A stretch of DNA of 32,000 nucleotides from an uncultured archaeon. GTDB taxonomy: Archaea; Asgardarchaeota; Thorarchaeia; Thorarchaeales; Thorarchaeaceae. A program made the translations under genes and the position numbers. The stretch lies in assembly GCA_964354495.1 (NCBI GenBank), contig CAYHAA010000001.1, positions 60,001 through 92,000 on the forward strand. Reading direction: 5' to 3'. A model generated the notes under the pieces. That model was not told the origin of the DNA and ran no database searches. It saw only the letters and a list, made by a program, of their open reading frames with translations. Positions 3-25,696 of the stretch are shown in pieces (position 1 is the stretch's first letter; the number at the start of each line of letters is the position of its first letter).

Positions 3-905
3 AAGAGTAAGGACCGAACATTGGATGAACGTACAAGGAACTGGTACTCGGTCGTGGAGAAGGCATTGAAGGTGTTCGTCAATGCATCCTATGGTGTCAC
101 GGGCGCCAGACATTTCGAGCTCTTTTGCATGCCCGCTGCAGAAAGTACCACTGCCTTTGGGCGCGATGCCATTCAGCGAGCCAAGGCAAAGGCAGAGGAA
201 ATGGGAATCAGGGTGCTCTATGGTGACACAGACTCTGTCTTCCTGGACAATCCGACAAAGGAGCAACAGAAAGAATTGGTCCAGTGGTCGCGAAAAGCTC
301 TTGGAATAGACCTTGAAGTTGAGAAGACCTACAAGTATGTCGCGCTCTCAGATAGAAAGAAGAACTACATTGGTGTCTACACAGATGGGAAGGTGGAAGT
401 CAAGGGACTAAGTGGGAAGAAGCGGAACACACCAGACTATGCCCAGCAGGCATTTAGAGAGATGCTCGAAGTACTGAGTCGAGTTGATGATGCAGAGGGA
501 TTCGAAACAGCAAAGGCTGGAATACGTCAAATCGTGAATCGTGTCATCGATAGGCTTGAAGGGAAGGCTAAAGACTACACTCCTGAGGAACTGGCCTTCC
601 GAATTCAAATCACGAAGCGTCTGTCTGAGTATCCTACTGACATGCCGCACGTCAGAGCAGCAAAGATGCTGGTTGAGAAGACGAAAGATCCCAATAGAGT
701 GCTACCTGGGACAATCATTGAGTTCATCCGAATCAAAGGGCCAGGTGGTGTCCTTCCAGTTGAACTTGCCAAGCAAACGCCCTATTGGGTAGACAAAGAC
801 GTGTACATCGACATACTGAGGGGCGTCTTCGATCAAGTCTTAGACTCTTTAGGCCTTGACTTCAGCGAGTTTCTTGGTTTCACCACCCTAGACAAGTTTT
901 TCTAA
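3..905 (+). CDS. polB1: Family B DNA polymerase, B1 (Dpo1-like) type, C-terminal part; 5' end lies outside the window
   Basis: Frame is open from position 3. Motifs KALKVFVNASYG (B), VLYGDTDSVFLDNP (C) and KKNYIGVYTDGKVEVKG..KKRNTP closely follow the crenarchaeal Dpo1 pattern as I recall it. C-terminus TTLDKFF is PIP-box-like. Confidence 0.93.
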   Translation, partial: KSKDRTLDERTRNWYSVVEKALKVFVNASYGVTGARHFELFCMPAAESTTAFGRDAIQRAKAKAEEMGIRVLYGDTDSVFLDNPTKEQQKELVQWSRKALGIDLEVEKTYKYVALSDRKKNYIGVYTDGKVEVKGLSGKKRNTPDYAQQAFREMLEVLSRVDDAEGFETAKAGIRQIVNRVIDRLEGKAKDYTPEELAFRIQITKRLSEYPTDMPHVRAAKMLVEKTKDPNRVLPGTIIEFIRIKGPGGVLPVELAKQTPYWVDKDVYIDILRGVFDQVLDSLGLDFSEFLGFTTLDKFF

Positions 906-8808: not shown

Positions 8809-8904
8809 TAGTGGCGAGATAATACTCTCACTTAAAGCACGAGCAATTGAATGTGTCTTGTCAGCTTTGTGCGGACTTTCAGAATAGAGAAGGAACTATC
8901 ACCG

Positions 8905-9663
8905 ATGCAGGAGCGATTCGAAACAGAACTCTATGCCTCCATTGCCACGCTTGACCAGCTGAAGAAGCTGTATGACCTGGGCGCTGTTGATATTGGATCA
9001 TTCCAGAGAGAATCACAGGCACTCCTCCAGGAGGTACGGAGCAATATTGATAATCTGAAGCGAAGCGGATTGGATGTCGGAGGCTTCTTTGCAGGTGAAC
9101 GAATATCTGAGGTCTTTCCAGATGCTGCTGACCTTCTCAGGCTCCGCGAGGATGCATCCGCAAGATCCTATCAGGGAATGAATGCCGACCAGTACTATGA
9201 TTACATCGGCTTGGCAATACTTGACGTTGCTACTCAACACGCTTCGAAGGGACTAATGGGACTTGCAGAGCTCATTGTTGAGGTCGTGCGCCGTCTTCCT
9301 GAGATGAAATCTGTTACATACAATGACGTAATCGAGGCAGTCAACCGGGTGTCAGAGAATGGTCTAATTCCTGGTATTCGGACTCTTCGTGGAGGAGTGA
9401 AGGTCGTAGAGCTAAGGCCGCTTGAACTCGGCCGTGAGCAAGCTGATGTGGTCAACTTGGCAGCATCGAAAGGTCATGTTTCAGTTGAAGACGTGATGAT
9501 GCAGCTCAAATGGTCAGAAGACCATGCACGTCAAGTGCTTACAAGTCTCGTAGAGACCGGAATGGCAGTCGCAGATATCCGCTTCTCAACAGGTGGGAGG
9601 TATTATTTCCCTGGTCTTAGAGCACGAGATAAACCTGAAACGCCAAACCAAGGAGCTCACTGA
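8905..9663 (+). CDS. vps22: ESCRT-II Vps22/36 (EAP30) subunit with an N-terminal Vps28N-like ESCRT-I headpiece domain
   Basis: From 9187, DQYYDYIGLAILDV...GLMGLAEL...NDVIEAV...PLELGREQADVVNLAASKGHVSVEDVMMQLKWSEDHARQVLTSLVETGMA...YYFPGL tracks SNF8/Vps22 tandem winged helices. N-terminal ELYASIATLDQLKKLY..GAV..F....LL resembles Vps28. ATG 8905 is preferred over 8851. Confidence 0.9.
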   Translation: MQERFETELYASIATLDQLKKLYDLGAVDIGSFQRESQALLQEVRSNIDNLKRSGLDVGGFFAGERISEVFPDAADLLRLREDASARSYQGMNADQYYDYIGLAILDVATQHASKGLMGLAELIVEVVRRLPEMKSVTYNDVIEAVNRVSENGLIPGIRTLRGGVKVVELRPLELGREQADVVNLAASKGHVSVEDVMMQLKWSEDHARQVLTSLVETGMAVADIRFSTGGRYYFPGLRARDKPETPNQGAH

Positions 9664-10394
9664 GTCGATACCAAGACTGCGCCCTTCTTCCTATCAATCC
9701 ACTCAGCAAACCCTTTCTCTACCATCAGCGCCATAACAATATGAAGATCGTTTTCGGGAAGCTTTGCAAAGCCCTCCTTTGACTCCTGAATCACTATGGA
9801 TTTGACATCTAGTCTTAGCTTTCCAGTCTTCAGGGACCACTCATATATCAGGTCGGCCCAGTCCTCAAGAGGTCTCCAAAAGATTCTGAGTTGCCGTTTT
9901 CGCCTGTCACTCCACTCCGCCACCTCCTTATCGATGAGGGCCTCTGAGATCATCTTGAACGAGTCGACCTTGTTTCTCAGATCCTTGAAAGGAGGTTTAC
10001 TAATGAACGCAGCAAGGGATAGTACATGGATCTGTTTGAGTTCTGCCCATTGAAGCAGATAATCTGACCACTCCTCTGCCCACAGAATCCTATCCTCTTC
10101 TCTTGGAGGAACACCATACATCCATTCACTCTCCTCGGGGCTTCCCCAAGGGGGCATCAGAACGACTGGTGCGCTCTCAAGTCTCTCTACTTCCGTTTCG
10201 TCTGCGACAGCATCATTCTCGGAAACTACTTCAGTCGTTTCGGACTTCTCAACGATGACCTCGGGTGTGTGGATATCATCCTTTATTACAGGAGAGGTCT
10301 CTGCCTCCTGAACTGACCGAACCACCTCAGTGTCTTCTGGTTCTTCCTGGGCTTCTTCTCTTCGTTTCTCTTTCCTCTTCTCTCTCATGCCCAA
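9657..10394 (-). CDS. vps25: ESCRT-II Vps25 subunit with a long charged N-terminal extension
   Basis: AEWSDRRKRQLRIFWRPLEDWADLIYEWSLKTG matches Vps25 LEW.D.....IMWRRPEEWGKLIYQW. The C-terminal winged helix ends KGFAEWID. Confidence 0.9.
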   Translation of the reverse strand: MGMREKRKEKRREEAQEEPEDTEVVRSVQEAETSPVIKDDIHTPEVIVEKSETTEVVSENDAVADETEVERLESAPVVLMPPWGSPEESEWMYGVPPREEDRILWAEEWSDYLLQWAELKQIHVLSLAAFISKPPFKDLRNKVDSFKMISEALIDKEVAEWSDRRKRQLRIFWRPLEDWADLIYEWSLKTGKLRLDVKSIVIQESKEGFAKLPENDLHIVMALMVEKGFAEWIDRKKGAVLVSTQ

Positions 10395-10397
10395 TCT

Positions 10398-11627
10398 CTA
10401 CGAACCCTCCGCCCAGTCAATGTATCTCCTGACATCCTCTGGGGGAGTTGCAGGTCTGATGTTCTCGATGGCACTCAGGAAGTCTTCCCTTGAAACGGGT
10501 CGGATGTCCAAGATCTCTCTCTCGTCGTCCATTCTTCCAGTGCGCTGAAGGTCTCTGATTGGTTCCATCGCTGCTTCTCGGCAGACGATGCTTATGTCTC
10601 TACCACTGTACCCTTCAGTCAGGTCTGCCATCTCTTCATAATCAATAGTTGGAGAGACCTCGATGTCTTCCATATGGGTCTCAAAGATTGCTGTTCTTGC
10701 CTCTCTTCCGGGAAGTGGAACATGTATCTTCTTCTCGAATCTCGACCGAAGAGCAAAGTCTAGCTCCCACGGTAGATTCGTCGCTCCAATCAGAGTGATT
10801 CTGTCTTTTGGATCACTTCCAAGACCCTGAAGCTCTGTGAGTAGTTGGGTCTTGAGTCGCCGTTCTCCTCCTACATCATCTCCAGAGCGCGACACTCCGA
10901 TAGAGTCGAGTTCATCAATAAAGATGATTGCAGGCTGATTCTTCCTGGCCAGTTCAAAGAGGGTCATGACCAAGCGTTCCGACTCTCCCAACCACTTGCT
11001 GACGATGTTCGCAGCAGATACATTGAAGAAAGTCGCATTCACCTCTGATGCCACTGCTTTAGCAATGAGTGTCTTTCCACAGCCGGCTGGTCCATAGAAT
11101 AGGATTCCTCTCCAAGGCTGTCTTGCTTTGCCTTTGAATAGCTCCGGATGTTTCATTGGTGTGACTATTGCATCACTAATCGCCTGTTTTGCATCCTCGA
11201 GTCCTGCGACCTCAGACAGCTTGATCTTGGGCCGTTCAGAGATGATTGTGTCCGAGATCATCTCGCGCAGTCGTTTTCCATCCTCGTCCAGTTCTTGCTC
11301 AACTTTGGATGCCTGCTTGATTGGCGCAGGCTTGGCAGGCCCAAAATCTGCCTTTGGCGGTTCAGCAAGACCATCAACAGGTCCTGCCGATTTCTTCTTA
11401 ATGCCTGAGAGGAACCTGACTCTATCTACGCACTCTTGGGCGCGATTGAAGTAGTGTTTTCTTATGGTTGGAAGAGCAGCTGAGTTTGAGAGCTTTATCA
11501 GTATCTTGCTCGCCTTGAGATATTGTTGGCATGCCTCGTTCTTCATCCCTCTCTGATCGAGTTCTATAGCTCTGTCGAGCAGAGTCTTGAGACCCAGGTC
11601 CAATCTATCACTATCCGATCCGGCCAT
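10398..11627 (-). CDS. vps4: Vps4 AAA+ ATPase with an N-terminal MIT domain
   Basis: MIT helices (LDRAIELDQRG....A..QYLKAS), Walker A GPAGCGKT, pore loop SKWLGESER, Walker B IIFIDELD, and ATNLPWELD. Lies among ESCRT genes. Confidence 0.95.
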   Translation of the reverse strand: MAGSDSDRLDLGLKTLLDRAIELDQRGMKNEACQQYLKASKILIKLSNSAALPTIRKHYFNRAQECVDRVRFLSGIKKKSAGPVDGLAEPPKADFGPAKPAPIKQASKVEQELDEDGKRLREMISDTIISERPKIKLSEVAGLEDAKQAISDAIVTPMKHPELFKGKARQPWRGILFYGPAGCGKTLIAKAVASEVNATFFNVSAANIVSKWLGESERLVMTLFELARKNQPAIIFIDELDSIGVSRSGDDVGGERRLKTQLLTELQGLGSDPKDRITLIGATNLPWELDFALRSRFEKKIHVPLPGREARTAIFETHMEDIEVSPTIDYEEMADLTEGYSGRDISIVCREAAMEPIRDLQRTGRMDDEREILDIRPVSREDFLSAIENIRPATPPEDVRRYIDWAEGS

Positions 11628-11780: not shown

Positions 11781-12398
11781 GTGAAATCTTTGGCTTCAAT
11801 AAGAAAGGCATTTGCCTGGGGTAGGAAGAAACCAGATGTTGGCGAGATTTCCAGTCGTCTAAGAATCCTAAGTAAACAGCTTGCCCGACAGAGAAACAAA
11901 CTCGAGAAAGAGGAACAGGACACCCGCGCCAGAGCTGTACGTGCGAGGAAGGGCGGGCAGACGGATGCATATCGAACTTATGCTACCGAGATGATCCGCT
12001 TCAGACGCTACGCGCTCTCCGTCGACAAGTCACGACTTCAGATTCTAAAGATCCTTGCACACCTGAATCGTGCTCAGACATCGGCAAAGACCTCTCTAGC
12101 TCTTCAAGAAGTAGCGAAGATTCTTGGCATGCTGGGTGAATCTACAGACTCGACAAAAGTCGTCGCGAACGTTGACGAGATTGCTCGGCGCCTTGAAGAA
12201 TTCGAGATTGAAACGAACATATCCGATGAGGCTCTTGACTCCACTATGGAGATTTCGTCTGAAGATCTCACATCTGCAATGCAGGAGATTGACATAGAAG
12301 CGGGTCTTGCAGACGCTGCTGCGGCTAAGAAACCGCTTGGCGAGGTTGAGTCCCTAGAGGATGACATCAAGTCCTTAGAACGTGAGTTGGGGATGTAG
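11781..12398 (+). CDS. ESCRT-III subunit, Vps2/24/46 (CHMP1-3-like) class
   Basis: N-terminal amphipathic helix (SIRKAFAWGRKK), basic helical hairpin RLRILSKQLARQRNKLEKEE...ARKGG...YRTYATEMIR, acidic C-terminal half with MQEIDIEAGL (compare CHMP1 LQEMADEAGL), and a terminal amphipathic MIM1-like helix. Confidence 0.92.
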   Translation: MKSLASIRKAFAWGRKKPDVGEISSRLRILSKQLARQRNKLEKEEQDTRARAVRARKGGQTDAYRTYATEMIRFRRYALSVDKSRLQILKILAHLNRAQTSAKTSLALQEVAKILGMLGESTDSTKVVANVDEIARRLEEFEIETNISDEALDSTMEISSEDLTSAMQEIDIEAGLADAAAAKKPLGEVESLEDDIKSLERELGM

Positions 12399-12402
12399 AG
12401 TA

Positions 12403-14013
12403 TTACCAGAATTGCTCTCTGGACTCTCTCGAGAGTCGCTGAATCTCTCTTCTGTTGAGATAGGAATCTCTCATGAGATCTTTGTACCTTCGAATGAAGT
12501 CTTCTGTCACTAAGCGACCATCTCTCAACAAGTGTACGGTTTCTCGCATAGCTCCATAGATGGACTCCGAGCTTCTTTGAAGGGTATCAATAGATTCACT
12601 TGGTCTGTATTGCATGTTACCATTTTGGGGCTGGTTGCTCCGGCCGATTGTCCTCTCCAAATCCTTTCTGAAGTATTCCGGGGATGCATAACCTGTACCA
12701 TATGGAATCTCCCTTGGTTGAACCTGGGACGTGGACCAAGGTTGGGTTTGGTACCCAAGGTCAGGCCTGATTGCTGTGGCATCATCTTGTCTCTTGTTTG
12801 GTGATAGTAGTGAATAGACCATCCCCTCGATCTTTAGCCTCACATCGCTGATACTGACTTCTTCTTGCTCGATTTTGCGTACTCTCTGCATGTCAGTCTG
12901 GACATACCTATCGAATTTACGAGCAATCTCCACATAGTCTGGTAAGACCTTCTTTGTCTGGTCCGAACAAGATATTCTCACATCGCCCTGCTTGAGCTTC
13001 AGGACTAGCCTCTTTCGAAACCGCCCGTCCTCCTCTATCGACTTCAGATAAAGAAGGGGAAAATCGAAGATTGTCTCCATCTTTCTGCGGACTCTTCCAG
13101 TTTCAGCTAAGAATAGGAGTCTCTTATTGGTCAGGTACAGTGTTCCCAGGGCCTTGTCGTTCTTGAGGAAGTCACTTCCTGCTACTTTCACGTCTGGTAG
13201 GGCGCACACCGGGAGCTCTCCGACAGAGAGCTGGCAATGTTCGTAGAAGTTTGTGAAGTGATTCCTATAGTAGTCGAGACCATCCAATTGCCTCTTGACA
13301 TCCTTCAGGGTGATTCTGAGGGATTCGATTGCCTCGTCAACGTTTTGTTTGTAGTAGATCCCGAGTTCTGTGATTCTGTTGGTTATTCCCTCAATGAATG
13401 GAAATTGGGATACTCTCCAAAGAGCGTATTCGGTGAAGTTCTTGGTCTCCGCAGCCATCCTTCTGGCCACTATCTCTGCCTGACTTCCGATTCGGTTCTT
13501 GATTGCTGGCAGTTCTTCTTGGATTGCCTCTATCTTTTCTTCGAGCCACTTGTAATGGAGGAAATTCGCCATCCTGAGCGACACCAATAGACGCTTAGTG
13601 ACACTGAGTTTGTTGTTGAATTCGCGAAGCTTGGTATGTCCATACTGAATTGTCATGACAGCATGACGCATTTCAAGGGCCAGTGTCCTTCTCTTGTCCT
13701 CAAGGACAACGATCCGCACGGAGTGACATCTAGCGCAGATGTCGATAGTACGCTTACCCCTGGTGAGGTTCTCAGATTTGCACTCAGGGCAGCTCTCGAA
13801 TTTCTCTCCAGGGATTGGTTCTCCAAGAGAGTGGTGACAGTCTCCGCAGACATCGTACTCAGTGGTTCTGCTATCTAAACATTCTGAGCAAAGAGCTGCT
13901 CCACAGTCTTCGCACATATGGGTTGCCCTGTTCTTCTGGCAGGATCGACACAGTTCAGATGTTGCCTCTTCTGTCAACTGAGTACCTCCGGTGGTCACAT
14001 CTACTAGAGGCAT
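12403..14013 (-). CDS. ESCRT-I-like protein: multi-Zn finger, coiled coil, GRAM/GLUE-like PH domain, Pro/aromatic linker, steadiness box (Vps23 core)
   Basis: Six CxxC pairs in residues 22-96, heptad-rich helices, GTLYLTNKRLLFLA (GRAM/GLUE signature), and C-terminal LLRDGRLVTEDFIRRYKDLMRDSYLNR, which aligns with TSG101 ALRRGVIDLDVFLKHVRLLSRKQFQLR as recalled. Confidence 0.8.
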   Translation of the reverse strand: MPLVDVTTGGTQLTEEATSELCRSCQKNRATHMCEDCGAALCSECLDSRTTEYDVCGDCHHSLGEPIPGEKFESCPECKSENLTRGKRTIDICARCHSVRIVVLEDKRRTLALEMRHAVMTIQYGHTKLREFNNKLSVTKRLLVSLRMANFLHYKWLEEKIEAIQEELPAIKNRIGSQAEIVARRMAAETKNFTEYALWRVSQFPFIEGITNRITELGIYYKQNVDEAIESLRITLKDVKRQLDGLDYYRNHFTNFYEHCQLSVGELPVCALPDVKVAGSDFLKNDKALGTLYLTNKRLLFLAETGRVRRKMETIFDFPLLYLKSIEEDGRFRKRLVLKLKQGDVRISCSDQTKKVLPDYVEIARKFDRYVQTDMQRVRKIEQEEVSISDVRLKIEGMVYSLLSPNKRQDDATAIRPDLGYQTQPWSTSQVQPREIPYGTGYASPEYFRKDLERTIGRSNQPQNGNMQYRPSESIDTLQRSSESIYGAMRETVHLLRDGRLVTEDFIRRYKDLMRDSYLNRREIQRLSRESREQFW

Positions 14014-14142
14014 TACCTAAGAAAGACGTGTGTATTACTCAAGCAACATTCCCAATATCTCACGAGACTATGTAAACCGTTGTCCATGCCAGAGAAGTTA
14101 AAACACGCAGTGAAACGCTCAGACTGAGCAAAGGAGATACCT

Positions 14143-15528
14143 ATGGAAGATCTTGCGCGGATTGCCATTGAAACCGCCCTAAAAGCCGGTGCGCGATTTG
14201 CCGATGTGAGATTCGAGAACAGCGCAACAACAATCATAGAACTCAATGACGGTGTCTCCAAACAGTCATTATCATCCCGCCTCAAGGGCGCAGGGATGAG
14301 AGCATTCGTCGATGGTGCGTGGGCATTTGCCCAGACAACTGACCTGACCAGAGATGGTATGAGGTCTATTGGCAAGTCGGTTGCAAAGATGGCTCTCGCA
14401 ACCAGAGAGAAGACCACTGAACGATTTGAGATAGATGGTCCATCATTTCAAGACCGGCTTCATTACAACGCGAAGAAACCCTTCAGCAGTGTTTCCTTAG
14501 ATGAGAAGATGGCATTTGCCAAGATGATCGACGACCAGACACGGGACTATGACAAACGCATCTCTTCGACACGAACTGTCTATACAGACCTCTGGACTGA
14601 GCTCTATGTTGCCAATTCTCTCAGTACAAGTATCTATACCGAAAACGCGATTCCGCGTATCATCTCTGCTCCGACAGCCAAAGATGGCATAAACCGACAA
14701 AGTACATTCAAGTCGTTGAGTGTGCGAGGCGGATACGAAGTCATGAGTGCCAGCGAGGCGCAGAATATCGGGACCGCCGCTGGGAAGCTCGTGATTGACC
14801 TGCTATCTTCTGCGTCTGTCAAGGGCGGAGTCTATGACGTTGTGATGGATCCCATTCTGAATGGCGTGATGGTCCATGAAGCCTTTGGCCATGCTGTTGA
14901 GGCAGACAATTGGCCAGCACATGCGACTGTACTCGAAGACAGGATTGGAACCCAAGTCGGTCCAGAGAATCTGAGCATCACGGATGATCCCACTCTTGAA
15001 GGAATGCGAGGATCCTATGAATATGATTGGGAAGGGACAAGAGCAACAAGAAGACATCTTGTCACGAATGGCACTCTGACTGAGCTACTTCATAGCCTCG
15101 AGACCGCAACAAGACTCGACTTGAAGCCAAATGGTGCTGCAAGGAGCCAGTCGTTCATGCATGAGCCACTACCGAGGATGAGCAACACCTACATGGAAAC
15201 TGGAGACTGGCAGGTCGATGAACTCATCCAAGACACAAAGAACGGCATTATTCTCTGTAGTCCCAACTATGGGTACACACAGTCTGCAAAAGGGCAATTC
15301 ACGTTTCAAGCGAGTTACGGCTATGTGATTGAGAATGGTGAGAAAGGCCAGATGGTCAGAGACGTGTCCCTTGCAGGTAACATCTTGGAAGTGCTTGCCA
15401 AAGTCGATGCGATTTGCAAAGACTTCCTGCTTGATGCAGGAACGTGCAGCAAGGGAGGTCAGGCGGTACCGACAATGGCTGGCGGGCCTCACGCAAGAAT
15501 CAGGAAAGTGCCCGTAGGAGGCATGTAG
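14143..15528 (+). CDS. tldD: TldD metalloprotease subunit
   Basis: HEAFGH zinc motif, DDPT....GSYEYDWEG, PLPRMSNTY, and TCSKGGQAVP. SD AAGGAG upstream. Confidence 0.93.
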   Translation: MEDLARIAIETALKAGARFADVRFENSATTIIELNDGVSKQSLSSRLKGAGMRAFVDGAWAFAQTTDLTRDGMRSIGKSVAKMALATREKTTERFEIDGPSFQDRLHYNAKKPFSSVSLDEKMAFAKMIDDQTRDYDKRISSTRTVYTDLWTELYVANSLSTSIYTENAIPRIISAPTAKDGINRQSTFKSLSVRGGYEVMSASEAQNIGTAAGKLVIDLLSSASVKGGVYDVVMDPILNGVMVHEAFGHAVEADNWPAHATVLEDRIGTQVGPENLSITDDPTLEGMRGSYEYDWEGTRATRRHLVTNGTLTELLHSLETATRLDLKPNGAARSQSFMHEPLPRMSNTYMETGDWQVDELIQDTKNGIILCSPNYGYTQSAKGQFTFQASYGYVIENGEKGQMVRDVSLAGNILEVLAKVDAICKDFLLDAGTCSKGGQAVPTMAGGPHARIRKVPVGGM

Positions 15529-16878
15529 ATGCTCAGCTCTCTGCTTACGATTGGTGAAAAGGCAATCAGGCTTGCTGAAAGAATGGGAGCCAACCAAGCT
15601 GAAGCATATCTGGCTCAGAGCAGATCTTTCGAAATTGCTGCTGAGAACAACGCAATCAAAAGCGCAAGCGAAACGAGAGATGCTGGCATAGGGATTCGGA
15701 CAATTGTCGGCAAGAAGGTAGGTTTTGCCTATGTCACAACGCTCAATGATTCAGACATTGAAGAGGCAGTTACCAACTCAATGAGCCTCGCAAGGGCATC
15801 TATCGCTGATCCTGATTTTGTTACTCTTCCGAATTCGGAGTCATCCTACCATTCGGCGAGAGGCATATTCGATAGGGAACTCGACGAACTCACTTCAGAG
15901 GGGACTGCAGATCTCCTAATTCGAGCAATTCATGCATGCAAGGGGTCGCTCGATAAATGGAACCATGCGATTGAGGCAGCAGTGCAGAGTTCCTCAAGCG
16001 TGAATGCAATCGTAAACTCTCTTGGCATACTCAAGAGTGAGCGGAAAACATCCATCTCTATCTATACATACCCCATCATCAAGGATGGTAAGGATCAGAC
16101 TGCAAGTTATGAATTTCAGGTCTCTCGAAGGTTGAATGAGATTGACCCTGAATGGGTTGGTACGAATGCTGCAGAACTTGTTAGAGGATTCTTACGACCC
16201 AAGACAATCGATGGTGGAGAGATGCCTGTTTTGTTTGCTCCGCTCGGAGCGAGTGCCATCCTTGGGCGTGGATTCGCTGATGCAGTGAATGCTGATGAGG
16301 TCCAAATGGGCAGATCTTACATTGCAGATGCATTAGGCGAGTGCATCGCATCTGAAAAGCTAGAGATAGTTGATGATGGATTGCTACCAAGTGGGATTGG
16401 CACACGATCGTTCGATGCAGAAGGATTCCCATCGCAGCGGACGCCAGTCATCAAAGATGGTGTCCTCAAGAGCCTCCTTCACAACTCCTACACAGCCAAC
16501 AAAGAGAATGTAGATAACACTGGCAATGCCAGCAGACCTTCCTACTCAGGACTGCCAGGCATCTCTACGACCAACTTCGTCGTGTCCCCAGGGAAGGGTG
16601 ACCTCAACGAACTCATTACAGAGCTTGATGAGGGCGTCGTCTGCAGGAACACTGGCGATAGTCCTAACCTGACTACTGGCGACCTCAGTGCTATGATTAG
16701 TGAGGGCTACTATGTCAAGAATGGTGAGATTCAGCACTCACTCAAGAACACTCTAATCGGAATCAACATGCGTGATCTCTTGAAGAGGATAAGCCATGTT
16801 GGAAATGACAGTCGAACGACATTTTCGATGGTCACACCTTCTATCGTTATCGAAAGTGCAAGCATCACGTCAGGATGA
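15529..16878 (+). CDS. pmbA: PmbA/TldE partner subunit
   Basis: Directly abuts tldD. GIGIRTIVGKKVGFAY, RSFDAEGFPSQRT and LHNSYTA are present; the HExxxH motif is absent. Confidence 0.92.
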   Translation: MLSSLLTIGEKAIRLAERMGANQAEAYLAQSRSFEIAAENNAIKSASETRDAGIGIRTIVGKKVGFAYVTTLNDSDIEEAVTNSMSLARASIADPDFVTLPNSESSYHSARGIFDRELDELTSEGTADLLIRAIHACKGSLDKWNHAIEAAVQSSSSVNAIVNSLGILKSERKTSISIYTYPIIKDGKDQTASYEFQVSRRLNEIDPEWVGTNAAELVRGFLRPKTIDGGEMPVLFAPLGASAILGRGFADAVNADEVQMGRSYIADALGECIASEKLEIVDDGLLPSGIGTRSFDAEGFPSQRTPVIKDGVLKSLLHNSYTANKENVDNTGNASRPSYSGLPGISTTNFVVSPGKGDLNELITELDEGVVCRNTGDSPNLTTGDLSAMISEGYYVKNGEIQHSLKNTLIGINMRDLLKRISHVGNDSRTTFSMVTPSIVIESASITSG

Positions 16879-20140: not shown

Positions 20141-20258
20141 ATGAAGGGGCAGGACGCAAGTCTTGCCTTCTCTTCTAGGTACTTCTTCTGCTGTATGCCT
20201 CTCGTCACATATAACCTTATCATATTCCATTTCAACAATACTTCCAAGAGATGATGCT

Positions 20259-21095
20259 ATGTCCAGCAAGAAGTCCATTCTAGGAGTCTGGGTGATTGAG
20301 CGAGGCAGTGGCAGGAATATTGTTGCCAGGGCCTATTCCGATGCCGTCAAACTAGATATGGATTTGATAGCTCCCTTTCTCTCTGCAACCCACACCTTCA
20401 TCGATAAGGCATCCAACGAGACCCTCAAGACAATTGACACGGAGACCAACCGGTATGTCTGGGAGGCGAACGACCATCTTTTGTTTGTCATGGTCGTGAG
20501 TAAAGCTGCTCGACTTGGACACATGCGCTTCATGCTGGAGTATGCCCTGAAGGAGTTCATGACAAACGTTGTGCCACCCGGTAGTGATGTCGCTACCTTG
20601 CTAAAGAACTGGCCTGGGACTCGCAATACCTTCAAGGACTTCGGCGATTTCATCGATGAGCTTGTCACTCAATATGAAGAAACGGACGAAAGCCTGGTTG
20701 CCGGCAAATCAATGGACTGCCTTGAGGTCTACAGTCATCTCTTCAGAGGCATCATGCAAGTAAAGACTACGAAAGCCAAGAAAAGCCAGATAGTTGCCAA
20801 GATGACCGAACACACTGAACACCTTCTCAGTCGATTTCCCTTCCTCAGCTCTACGCCTATTGATACTGCAGGTATCGAGGTCCTTCAGATTGATGTCTAT
20901 GATGTGTCCTATCAGCATCTGAGGGATGCCTTGGAAGAGCTCCTGCGATTGCTAGGAAAAGTGACGCAGGAAGCAGTCACACCCAAGGAGTATCGAAACA
21001 TGGTCTTTGATCATGTCATGCCATATGTCAAGGGGGACATCCAGAGACTGGAAACCTACGCTATCCTTGATGATGTCGTTCGCTACCTATTCTGA
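20259..21095 (+). CDS. Longin-domain protein with a C-terminal helical domain
   Basis: ILGVWVIERGSGRNIVARAY...DLIAPFLSATHTF...LKTIDTE..RYVW....LLFVMVV....L......F...W.G....F..F...IDEL fits the beta-beta-alpha-beta-beta-beta-alpha-alpha longin layout. ATG 20259 is preferred. Confidence 0.7.
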   Translation: MSSKKSILGVWVIERGSGRNIVARAYSDAVKLDMDLIAPFLSATHTFIDKASNETLKTIDTETNRYVWEANDHLLFVMVVSKAARLGHMRFMLEYALKEFMTNVVPPGSDVATLLKNWPGTRNTFKDFGDFIDELVTQYEETDESLVAGKSMDCLEVYSHLFRGIMQVKTTKAKKSQIVAKMTEHTEHLLSRFPFLSSTPIDTAGIEVLQIDVYDVSYQHLRDALEELLRLLGKVTQEAVTPKEYRNMVFDHVMPYVKGDIQRLETYAILDDVVRYLF

Positions 21096-24856: not shown

Positions 24857-25696
24857 CTAGTGTACCTGCCAAAATGTCCATCCCAAGACGATCGTGCAGA
24901 TAATGGCAACAACGACTGCCCATTTGGTTGAAGTATTGTGGGCCTCTCGAATGCCAAAGATAAGCAGAAAGCCCGTCCAGACCATTGCTCCTGTCGTCAT
25001 CACGTCGATCATCAGCCAGACAGTCAAACCATATGCCCAAGTCACGAGACTCTGTGCAATTGCTGAAATAGAAGATGGGTTGCTGAGATCTACAAGAGTC
25101 GGATATGACGGAACCAGAATGAAGATGATGAGAACCCCCAAGAGGCGAACGAGAACGACTGGTAATATGCTGTATCCTACAATCGATAATGTCTTCATCC
25201 TTCCTCCCGCGCCACCAGTCAACTTGAATGTGAAATGAGCAAAGGCTGTCCCAATGATGAGATAGATAATGCCCAGCATTATCCCGGGCATCATTCCGAC
25301 TAAGGCTGCTAAACCAAATGATAACCCGCTTTGACTGAGCAGGACACTGACCTCTGCAGTTTCACCAGAAGTCACATTCAAGACGACCAGGGTATTGACC
25401 TTGGAAGATAATCCTAGGAATAGTCCCATCATGACAACTGCATTCATTATGATTATGATGAACGGTCCTGCTGCGTCTGGTCTCTGACCAATGTCACGGT
25501 ATGTTGCAGATGGCCTTCGCAGGACGCCCCAGAGCCGTTCTCGAATACTCATGAAACGAATTTCCTTCCGTTCTGGCCGTTTCAACAGAGGAAGGAGTCT
25601 TTCTACTGACTCTTCGGCAATATTCTCTCTGCAAACTGGGCATACCGTAGCATCAGCTGGAACTGGACTATCACAGAACTCACAGCGTCGTACCAT
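24857..25696 (-). CDS. Zinc-ribbon plus Yip1-domain membrane protein
   Basis: N-terminal CEFC..PVPADATVCPVC, then LWGVLRRPSATYRDI (Yip1 N-motif), five TM segments, TLSIVGYSILP and LLIFGIREAH. Confidence 0.8.
   Translation of the reverse strand: MVRRCEFCDSPVPADATVCPVCRENIAEESVERLLPLLKRPERKEIRFMSIRERLWGVLRRPSATYRDIGQRPDAAGPFIIIIMNAVVMMGLFLGLSSKVNTLVVLNVTSGETAEVSVLLSQSGLSFGLAALVGMMPGIMLGIIYLIIGTAFAHFTFKLTGGAGGRMKTLSIVGYSILPVVLVRLLGVLIIFILVPSYPTLVDLSNPSSISAIAQSLVTWAYGLTVWLMIDVMTTGAMVWTGFLLIFGIREAHNTSTKWAVVVAIICTIVLGWTFWQVH

Follow-up and report, generated by a model that had tools for sequence, protein, structure and literature searches.

The window analysed here is a stretch of 32,000 nucleotides from a Thorarchaeaceae archaeon (GCA_964354495.1, contig CAYHAA010000001.1, positions 60,001 to 92,000). 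It carries an ESCRT locus whose features are collected in Table 1. One of the genes encodes a protein, P0001, that begins with the N-terminal domain of Vps28 and continues, after a linker, with the winged helices of Vps22. An alternative longer open reading frame starting at 8851 would add 18 residues that are unconserved, and the methionine at 8905 is the start in most homologues. The gene for a Vps25-like subunit is convergent with the fusion gene and overlaps its 3' end; its orthologue ThorAB25_09020 is labelled Vps25 in the relevant part of the supplementary data of Hatano et al. (Nat Commun 2022, PMC9192718). A further gene encodes a protein of 536 aa that matches the Znr_PH_CC_SB architecture (cog.011556) as outlined in passages of Makarova et al. 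(mBio 2024, PMC11188069), and whose orthologue ThorAB25_08990 is labelled 'SB' in the corresponding data of Hatano et al. (PMC9192718). This gene is in conserved synteny with the fusion gene, five genes away as counted by locus tags.

Table 1. Features of the thorarchaeial ESCRT locus; positions are those of the window.
Feature	Position	Strand	Evidence
Whole gene, Vps28N-Vps22 fusion protein P0001	8905..9663	+	ORF and translation; 252 aa plus stop
Vps28 N-terminal (ESCRT-I headpiece) domain, residues 1-84	8905..9156	+	hhalign, HMM, PDB profile, AF2, Foldseek, VIA
Flexible linker, residues 85-93	9157..9183	+	low confidence in both AF2 models (pLDDT below 50)
EAP30/Vps22 core, two winged-helix domains, residues 94-238	9184..9618	+	PF04157, phmmer to SNF8, AF2
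Disordered C-terminal tail, residues 239-252	9619..9660	+	pLDDT below 50; not conserved
Vps25-like ESCRT-II subunit, acidic N-terminal extension	9657..10394	-	PF05871 E 2.7e-14
Vps4 AAA ATPase (MIT + AAA + Vps4_C)	10398..11627	-	Pfam AAA 4e-39; MIT, Vps4_C below or near cut-off
ESCRT-III (Snf7 family) subunit	11781..12398	+	PF03357 E 6.3e-10
Zn-ribbon/coiled-coil/PH-like/steadiness-box protein, 536 aa, proposed docking partner	12403..14013	-	weak DZR, bPH_3, Vps36 GLUE Pfam hints
Predicted interface, C-terminal steadiness-box hairpin of the partner, residues about 493-522	12448..12537	-	complex model

The fusion gene finds a match in 85 of the 86 species genomes of the window's family and in 16 of its 16 genera. 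In about 77 of the 86 genomes, single-contig genomes included, this is one uninterrupted match from residue 1 to about 245, and more than 120 clusters of full-length homologous proteins were found, almost all from Thorarchaeota where named. The fusion architecture is fixed across the thorarchaeial family of the window. That the in-frame join is an artefact of assembly or gene calling, made from a small Vps28-like gene and a truncated Vps22 gene, was also considered, the first-pass annotation having named an assembly artefact as a refuting outcome. In its favour are the assembly of the source genome in 51 contigs and the adjacency of vps28 and vps22 in other lineages, where a sequencing error could merge them; it is refuted, and has practically no probability left, since the same unbroken frame is present in these independent species genomes from 16 genera and in the protein clusters, which derive from NCBI, JGI, ENA and Logan with contigs of up to 3.1 Mb, and since P0001 has about 250 aa versus the ~470 aa expected for read-through of two full genes.

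A Vps28 headpiece domain on a Vps22 body

The body of P0001 is that of Vps22. Pfam EAP30 (PF04157) matches residues 88-224 (E 8.5e-13, 49 bits versus a cut-off of 26.8 bits), phmmer aligns residues 94-238 with human SNF8/Vps22 (3cuq_A, 2zme_A; E 2e-15) and the secondary structure of the AF2 model has two helix/strand winged-helix units in this core. These data establish the in-frame fusion to Vps22-type EAP30 winged helices proposed in the first-pass annotation, and the ranges of the Pfam and SNF8 matches agree with the start at 9187 that was given for them. Two winged-helix domains are also what canonical Vps22/SNF8/EAP30 (PF04157; 3CUQ, 2ZME) has in common with P0001, and those of P0001 share about 30-38% identity with other Asgard Vps22. 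The matches in the PDB are to Vps22 only, not to Vps36, and the gene adjoins that of Vps25, as for canonical Vps22. The difference lies in front of the first winged helix. There, canonical Vps22 has a basic H0 helix and a helical domain, whereas P0001 has the N-domain of Vps28; indeed, the PF04157 match begins at profile position 82 of 219 and the canonical helical domain before WH1 is missing. P0001 is, then, an ESCRT-II subunit of the Vps22 type with a Vps28 headpiece N-domain in place of the canonical helical domain, connected by a linker of about 10 residues. The linker columns are poorly conserved in our alignment A1, segments of low pLDDT span residues 83-95 and 81-88 in the two AF2 models, and, going by the pTM of 0.42 for full-length P0001, the domains are in no fixed position relative to each other.

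The N-domain is built from a hairpin of two helices (residues 2-24 and 30-53) followed by short helices in residues 58-84. An hhalign comparison with 20 bona fide Asgard Vps28, all of them ORFs above the Pfam VPS28 cut-off, gave a probability of 99.3% (E 2.9e-20, 81 columns, 31% identity). Pairwise BLASTP against the same set gave 30-38% identity with E-values down to 1.8e-14, and an HMM of Asgard Vps28 matches residues 5-85 (E 7e-19). When a profile of 48 Thor N-termini was run against the PDB, the best four matches were N-domains of yeast Vps28 (E 0.005); human VPS28 was found with E 0.85. The fold is in line with this. The AF2 model of the N-domain has a pLDDT of 86 (about 95 across residues 1-80), its top 12 Foldseek matches are all Vps28-N (TM 0.71, rmsd 2.6, 81 columns), and VIA, run against 48,161 chains, gave two Vps28-N chains, one with Z 11.5 and an rmsd of 2.2, the other with Z 9.2 and an rmsd of 2.1 (78 aligned in each case); no other of these chains had a Z of at least 8. 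Both the helical hairpin and the helical segment that follows it superpose on solved Vps28-N. Residues 1-84 are therefore a true Vps28 N-terminal headpiece domain, the likeness being far above chance. The first-pass annotation had assigned positions 8905-9186 (residues 1-94 of the ORF) to a Vps28-N-like hairpin of about 80 residues by eye; sequence profiles and fold comparison, Foldseek included, both lead to Vps28.

With eukaryotic and Asgard Vps28 (PF03997; 2F6M, 2CAZ, 2P22, 6VME), P0001 has in common the motif ELYa.IATLd.l...y..G.id...Y.RQ, the fold (Z 11.5 and 9.2) and, as far as modelling can tell, the predicted packing on a Vps23-type hairpin. It differs in that the ESCRT-II-binding C-terminal four-helix bundle is replaced by the winged helices of Vps22, and in a score below that required by Pfam: the gathering cut-off of PF03997 (24.5 bits) is reached neither by the whole protein nor by its N-terminus alone, and hmmscan of residues 1-95 alone against Pfam returned nothing at E<=10. 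Sub-threshold PF03997 matches were seen for orthologue N-termini in ~20 sister genomes (E 0.001-0.05, 14-19 bits, from profile position 2 to 60..80). HMMER with the Pfam VPS28 and Vps23_core models is too insensitive for this domain.

The N-terminal ~90 residues could also be a diverged native helical domain of Vps22/Vps36, with a likeness to Vps28 that is generic to helical hairpins. Length and position match the helical domain of SNF8 (residue 94 of P0001 is paired with residue 93 of SNF8 in the alignment), many helical hairpins reach VIA Z 7-8 against the N-domain model, and Hatano et al., in their modelling of Heimdall Vps22, placed its N-terminal helical part on Vps22 (PMC9192718). However, hhalign gave a probability of only 0.5% for the Thor N-termini versus eukaryotic or canonical Asgard Vps22 N-termini, whereas the positive control, eukaryotic versus other-Asgard Vps22 N-termini, reached 97% (E 4e-11) and the comparison with Vps28-N the 99.3% (E 2.9e-20) given above. 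Moreover, there is no Vps22 chain in the top 50 fold matches, whose top ranks are filled by Vps28. At the level of sequence profiles the two hhalign comparisons refute a native Vps22 domain, which we regard as very improbable. An assignment as a Vps23/Vps37 steadiness box was rejected as well: Vps23 aligns over only 52-56 residues and ranks below Vps28, its chains (VIA Z 7.4-7.5, Foldseek ranks 22-33) are within the range of generic hairpins, and a six-frame search of the own genome with PF09454 (Vps23_core) gave no match on the fusion gene.

Vps28 in the family and the origin of the fusion

The first-pass annotation had also stated that the C-terminal bundle of Vps28 is absent from P0001, and this is correct: the hhalign match covers template columns 48-128 of 248 only, i.e. 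the N-domain, and residues 94-238 are EAP30. A six-frame search of the own genome (97.7% complete) with PF03997 gave no match at E<=1, and across the family the same profile found only the N-termini of the fusion proteins and a protein of ~410 aa; the C-terminal domain of Vps28 was not found. By this one profile, applied to MAGs, no separate Vps28 or Vps28 C-terminal domain is detected in the family, and a very divergent or separate copy may have escaped it. The ~410-aa thorarchaeial protein (own copy G000:C1:268769-270001) was a candidate, since rejected, for a diverged Vps28 of full length. It matches PF03997 over profile positions 10-186 with E 1e-5 to 0.03, just above the cut-off in one genome. 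In the hhalign comparison with Asgard Vps28 it had a probability of 0.3%, the Asgard Vps28 HMM gave at most 5 bits with a high bias and no Vps28 is among its matches in the PDB. It belongs to a family that is widespread in Bathyarchaeota and Methanobacteriota, and its nearest Atlas clusters are hypothetical proteins.

In other Asgard lineages, vps28 is located directly upstream of vps22 on the same strand, the two genes abutting or having a 4-nt overlap (L014: ORFs 1435-2103 and 2100-2852; L011: ORFs 1474-2280 and 727-1473), and the Vps22 encoded next to vps28 carries the canonical N-terminal domain. Judged from this gene order, and not from a reconstructed intermediate, the fusion most likely originated when an in-frame deletion took out the C-terminal bundle of Vps28 and the helical domain of Vps22 together. 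Outside the window's family the fusion is present in P0130 (Ranarchaeia) and P0134 (an Odinarchaeia MAG); with P0134 as query, 400 Asgard species genomes gave matches in the winged-helix region only and no more full-length fusions outside the family. In a tree of 35 N-domains the Thor fusions form one group (92/89) and P0130 and P0134 are placed with different free Vps28 clades. This tree at most hints at independent fusion origins in the Odin- and Ranarchaeia lineages, since both proteins have very long branches and the alignment has about 95 columns.

A candidate covalent bridge from ESCRT-I to ESCRT-II

The most conserved C-terminal block of the proposed partner is a FIRRY..L.R motif, and its steadiness box gave weak profile matches to that of yeast Vps23 (E 0.14-0.5). 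A model of the Vps28-N domain in complex with the C-terminus of the partner, made with two hairpins where the eukaryotic headpiece has three, had an ipSAE of 0.77 (median of three runs), compared to 0.00 for the best of 3 controls. At least 95% of the contacts are shared by the three runs, the pLDDT of the partner is at least 75 and the modelled interface is made of residues that are invariant or near-invariant in both alignments. Of 80 solved complexes 58 pass the ipSAE mark applied, as do 2 of 110 mismatched pairs, counts that are only roughly valid here because we used our own alignments. Since the pair resembles the solved Vps23-C:Vps28-N complexes (2F6M, 2CAZ, 2P22, 6VME), the pass is possibly a matter of model memory. 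The model supports docking of the N-domain on the steadiness-box hairpin of the partner, and it may reflect likeness only and not binding.

In eukaryotes, the C-terminal four-helix domain of Vps28 bridges ESCRT-I to ESCRT-II. In the thorarchaeial protein this bridge would be replaced by a covalent link, and the fusion probably joins ESCRT-I and ESCRT-II directly. The conserved first helix (ELYASIATLDQLKKLYD) of Vps28-N would pack on the C-terminal steadiness-box hairpin of the neighbour, as Vps28-N does on Vps23. A membrane- and cargo-binding Vps23-like subunit would then be tethered straight to Vps22-Vps25, which recruits ESCRT-III and Vps4, both encoded in the same locus. Because Thorarchaeota are reported to have neither ubiquitin (as stated in passages of PMC9192718) nor UEV-Vps23 (10.1101/2023.07.25.550441), the pathway would be ubiquitin-independent. 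Taken as a whole, a Vps28N-Vps22 fusion that arose by deletion and serves as a covalent bridge docking on the partner's steadiness box is the best explanation, and we consider it likely.

Compatible with this is the assumption that Vps28-N is mainly a module for homo-oligomerisation and that the steadiness box of the neighbour is not its docking site. According to the interaction data of Hatano et al. (PMC9192718), Thor Vps22 shows self-interaction in Y2H, and the tested ThorAB25_09030 carries the N-domain. The missing canonical helical domain is thought to promote pairing of Vps22 with Vps36, as discussed in a section of PMC11188069, and hairpins of this kind can self-associate, Odin Vps23 being described as a homodimer in a 2:1 complex with Vps28 (PMC9192718). 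On the other hand, the heteromeric model, with 0.77 versus 0.00 for the controls, uses the most conserved surface, and a gene for an SB protein is conserved at a distance of five genes. In addition, homodimerisation of Heimdall Vps22 resides partly in the winged-helix region (residues 160-167, as given in PMC9192718), so that self-interaction does not need the N-domain. A mainly oligomerising role is unlikely, if one with a real chance. As to a partner within ESCRT-II, a 782-aa EAP30 paralogue is encoded elsewhere in the own genome and could take this place instead of a second Vps22. Two other EAP30 matches there, L003 (a 128-aa ORF) and L004 (the C-terminal winged helix of an MCM helicase), are not ESCRT-II.

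The covalent bridge could be carried further to a hard-wired, ubiquitin-independent ESCRT-I/II in which a Vps23-like subunit, bearing the PH and Zn-ribbon modules for lipid/cargo binding, would be clamped via its steadiness box to the Vps28-N borne by Vps22. As Vps22 self-associates, each ESCRT-II would have two headpiece sites and might build a lattice by cross-linking or polymerising the upstream subunits; the fusion would have arisen by deletion across an ancestral vps28-vps22 pair, possibly independently in Odin- and Ranarchaeia. This extended reading is speculative, and we would not expect it to hold in full.

Known Vps22 proteins and significance

The fusion architecture as such is already known. 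Passages of Makarova et al. (mBio 2024, PMC10936438 / PMC11188069) describe an Asgard Vps22 ('Vps22#', cog.002769) that is 'fused to an SB'. P0001 corresponds to it by architecture, with two winged helices behind an N-terminal hairpin of the steadiness-box type, and by a locus with Vps25, Vps4, ESCRT-III and Znr_PH_CC_SB. In these passages the domain is called only 'SB', whereas that of P0001 is specifically Vps28-N, which is longer and, with the part that follows the hairpin, has 81 residues. Going beyond that text are the replacement of the canonical helical domain of Vps22 by the N-domain and a family in which no separate Vps28 is detected. The 'Vps22' assayed by Hatano et al. (Nat Commun 2022, PMC9192718), ThorAB25_09030, is evidently an orthologue: its N-terminus follows the A1 consensus and it belongs to the same locus of five genes (08990 SB, 09000 ESCRT-IIIA, 09020 Vps25, 09030 Vps22, as labelled there). 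In the main text and in part of the supplements of that paper (PMC9192718) it is referred to simply as Vps22, and a Vps28-like N-domain is unmentioned. Because the architecture has been published, the value of the present analysis is in confirmation and refinement and not in discovery; added are the specific identity as Vps28-N, the apparent loss of a separate Vps28 and the likely origin.

To our knowledge, Asgard archaea are without Vps36 and its GLUE domain. For Odinarchaeota, Hatano et al. refer, in the part concerned, to undetermined factors that bridge ESCRT-I and ESCRT-II (PMC9192718). For one lineage, the thorarchaeial protein would answer this question naturally, with a peptide bond as the bridge. 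The annotation of these proteins calls for caution, since the sole Vps28-like domain in these genomes is that of the thorarchaeial "Vps22", and presence or absence of "Vps28" in comparative tables hinges on whether matches are counted at the level of domains. The Heimdallarchaeial UEV-Vps23-Vps28 fusion (HeimAB125_14070) likewise makes one polypeptide out of ESCRT subunits that eukaryotes have as separate proteins; that fusion is confined to ESCRT-I and retains Vps28 in full, whereas P0001 crosses from ESCRT-I to ESCRT-II and has discarded the C-terminal domain of Vps28. The system is compact and should be easily expressed, as a domain of ~85 residues and a hairpin of ~80 residues suffice to test whether the interface of Vps28-N and steadiness box is older than eukaryotes.

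The N-terminal domain and the Vps22 part

The first-pass annotation had proposed that the 252-aa protein P0001 carries a Vps28-N-like ESCRT-I hairpin (8905-9186) fused in frame to Vps22/36. This observation is confirmed and its interpretation is supported by sequence profiles and by predicted structure. The N-termini of 48 members of the thorarchaeial family were aligned (A1); they have a near-invariant ELYASIATLDQLKK.YD.G motif in common. Among all PDB sequences, the best four matches to the A1 profile were the yeast Vps28 N-domains 2F6M_B, 2P22_B, 2F66_B and 2CAZ_B (E about 0.005), and human VPS28 (6VME_E) was found at E 0.85. As Asgard reference we used 20 ORFs above the Pfam VPS28 cut-off that were matched over the whole profile length. 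Hhalign aligned the thorarchaeial N-domain to this set with a probability of 99.3% (E 2.9e-20, 81 columns, 31% identity), pairwise BLASTP gave 30-38% identity, and an HMM built from the set matched residues 5-85 of P0001 with E 7e-19 and no bias. The Pfam VPS28 model (PF03997) had no match on P0001 itself; it matched, at profile positions 2-60..80, the first 60-80 residues of orthologous ORFs of 252-274 aa in about 20 sister genomes (E 0.001-0.05).

The AlphaFold2 model obtained from A1 is confident for residues 1-80 (pLDDT about 95), with helices at 2-24 and 30-53 followed by short helices to 84. In Foldseek against the PDB, Vps28 N-domains filled the top 12 places (TM 0.71, rmsd 2.6, 81 columns). 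Among 48,161 representative chains searched with VIA-align, the best match was human VPS28 (Z 11.5, rmsd 2.2) and the next yeast Vps28 (Z 9.2, rmsd 2.1), each with 78 aligned residues, and only these two reached Z >= 8. The steadiness boxes of Vps23 were also retrieved, at Z about 7.5, but over a hairpin of 52-56 residues only and within the range of generic hairpins. Since Vps28 N-domains match the full ~78-81 residues, the N-domain is a longer, Vps28-type headpiece domain and not a bare steadiness box. The main rival, a derived Vps22 helical domain, obtained an hhalign probability of 0.5% against eukaryotic or canonical Asgard Vps22 N-termini, which match each other in the same test (97%, E 4e-11).

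The C-terminal two thirds are Vps22, and the winged helices are of the EAP30 type, as first annotated. Pfam EAP30 matched residues 88-224 with 49 bits (cut-off 26.8), and human SNF8/Vps22 was the only match among PDB sequences (residues 94-238, E 2e-15). The EAP30 match covers only positions 82-218 of the 219 in the profile, and residue 94 of P0001 pairs with residue 93 of SNF8; thus, the ~93 N-terminal residues stand where Vps22 has its helical domain but do not match that domain. A full-length model, in which the N-domain and both winged helices are each confident, residues ~81-93 are of low confidence and pTM is 0.42, fits two modules joined by a flexible linker.

Distribution and possible origin of the fusion

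The fusion is real and fixed in the family. A match to P0001 was present in 85 of the 86 species genomes and in all 16 genera, and in about 77 of the 86 it ran from residue 1 to about 245 as a single, stop-free and unbroken match. Full-length homologues in more than 120 clusters, on contigs of up to 3.1 Mb, have the same length and N-terminus. An assembly artefact, the alternative raised at first pass, is thereby excluded. The window is part of a thorarchaeial (Asgard) chromosome, and the named homologues are nearly all from Candidatus Thorarchaeota MAGs. A start at 8851 would add 18 codons; these residues are unconserved, and the methionine at 8905 is the start in most homologues.

Most other Asgard families have a strong full-length Vps28 (264/400 genomes above the PF03997 cut-off). 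A PF03997 search of the genome under study (97.7% complete) found nothing, and the A1 profile retrieved the P0001 gene only. The C-terminal bundle of Vps28, noted as missing at first pass, was found neither in P0001 nor in the family with these queries. Besides the N-termini of the fusion, PF03997 matched in the family only a conserved, helical and coiled-coil-rich protein of ~410 aa (own copy L044:1504-2736 = G000:C1:268769-270001, outside the window). These matches span nearly the whole profile and are sub-threshold, with one exception. They were treated as false positives: hhalign gave 0.3%, the HMM of Asgard Vps28 did not exceed 5 bits and showed high bias, and the nearest Atlas clusters are hypothetical proteins of Bathyarchaeota and Methanobacteriota. 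This protein is likely to give rise to false "Vps28" calls in Thorarchaeota.

In many other Asgard families, the Vps22 match is directly preceded, on the same strand, by a Vps28 match. One such locus (L014) has a 4-nt overlap between the two ORFs (1435-2103 and 2100-2852), and in another (L011, minus strand) they abut (1474-2280 and 727-1473); this arrangement implies translational coupling. The Vps22 proteins beside these vps28 genes have the canonical helical domain (E 2e-28 with the Asgard profile, 4e-7 with the eukaryotic one) and not the thorarchaeial type of N-domain. An in-frame deletion that removed the 3' half of vps28 together with ~90 codons at the start of vps22 would give exactly the thorarchaeial protein. 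Fusions of Vps28-N and EAP30 with a longer linker also occur in MAGs named Ranarchaeia (P0130, 315 aa) and Odinarchaeia (P0134, 299 aa). In a small N-domain tree the two join separate clades of free Vps28; as both branches are long, this only hints at independent fusion.

The fusion architecture is already known. Makarova et al. 2024 describe Asgard Vps22 (cog.002769) as fused to a steadiness box and mark it in their locus figure as Asgard-specific Vps22 (PMC11188069), and Hatano et al. (2022) synthesised and tested an orthologue as "Vps22" (PMC9192718). The novelty is therefore low. Among the searchable papers we did not find the identification of the fused domain as specifically Vps28-N, the replacement (not addition) of the canonical Vps22 helical domain, a family without another Vps28, or the vps28-vps22 gene pair as a simple route to the fusion; we regard these as refinements of the published observation.

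The ESCRT locus and a candidate docking partner

The P0001 gene is part of a compact ESCRT locus, followed by tandem metallopeptidase paralogues and, farther on, two trafficking-flavoured genes.

Genes of the ESCRT locus and other features in the window
Feature	Position	Strand	Remark
Vps28-N/Vps22 fusion gene (P0001)	8905-9663	+	252-aa product, ORF translation
Vps25-like gene, convergent with the fusion gene	9657-10394	-	PF05871 E 2.7e-14
Vps4	10398-11627	-	
ESCRT-III, Snf7 family	11781-12398	+	
536-aa protein	12403-14013	-	several CxxC Zn-ribbon pairs, coiled coil, PH/GRAM-like segment, conserved C-terminal hairpin
TldD/PmbA metallopeptidase paralogues, tandem	14143-15528 and 15529-16878	+	adjoining the ESCRT locus
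Weak longin-domain match	20163-21095	+	Fuz_longin_1 E 0.003
Yip1-domain membrane protein, N-terminal zinc ribbon	24857-25696	-	PF04893 E 6.6e-21

The locus is the one given as ThorAB25_08990-09030 by Hatano et al. (2022, supplementary data), and the 536-aa protein corresponds to ThorAB25_08990 "SB" and to the published family Znr_PH_CC_SB, which Makarova et al. class as a likely ESCRT-I component (PMC11188069). Its PH/GRAM-like segment shows faint hints of Vps36 GLUE and bPH_3. In the Vps25-like protein, the ESCRT-II domain is preceded by an N-terminal extension of ~105 residues that is highly acidic and probably disordered, and the 3' ends of the Vps25-like gene and the P0001 gene overlap by 7 nt. 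A 134-aa ORF (14013-14417, minus strand) overlapping the first TldD/PmbA gene is probably no real gene.

In eukaryotes, Vps28-N packs with hairpins of Vps23 and Vps37 into the ESCRT-I headpiece, and the C-terminal domain of Vps28 reaches Vps36 of ESCRT-II, as summarised in PMC11188069. For a headpiece domain carried on Vps22, the C-terminal hairpin of the 536-aa protein would be the obvious candidate partner. Its profile is weakly similar to the steadiness box of yeast Vps23 (E 0.14-0.5), aligned at the very C terminus. Complex prediction of A1 with the last 82 residues of the partner (A2) gave a median ipSAE of 0.77 in three runs; of three controls, the best scored 0.00. The mark applied was passed by 58/80 solved complexes and 2/110 mismatched pairs, counts that are only rough because our own alignments were used. 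Contact agreement was at least 95% and partner pLDDT at least 75. In the modelled interface, the N-domain contributes residues 3-40, in helix 1 and the beginning of helix 2, and the partner segment contributes its residues 39-68, which correspond to about 493-522 in the full-length protein; these are the most conserved residues in both alignments. Vps23-C:Vps28-N complexes have already been solved, so the pass may reflect memory of these structures; what it shows is a headpiece-like pair, a likeness rather than binding.

If the two do bind, the fusion would directly connect a Vps23-like subunit with PH and Zn-ribbon parts to Vps22-Vps25 and, through these, to ESCRT-III and Vps4. Both ubiquitin (PMC9192718) and UEV-Vps23 (10.1101/2023.07.25.550441) are reported to be missing from Thorarchaeota. 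Such hard-wired docking by the fusion protein is plausible, yet unproven, and the mechanism is easy to test.

Two hairpins per ESCRT-II, as suggested at first pass, would depend on homodimerisation of the fusion protein. According to Hatano et al., thorarchaeial Vps22 interacts with itself in yeast two-hybrid assays (PMC9192718); the construct included the Vps28-type N-domain, so either module could account for the interaction. A ~780-aa protein with a paralogous EAP30 double winged helix at the C terminus is also encoded in nearly every genome of the family. The copy in the genome under study (782 aa, L056:571-2919 = G000:C1:401370-403718, outside the window) has a coiled coil and unknown domains ahead of the EAP30 part, and its C-terminal ~150 residues are 34% identical to residues 104-241 of P0001 (E 1.7e-15). 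This paralogue could be a Vps36-like partner, and the heterodimer would then carry a single Vps28-N.
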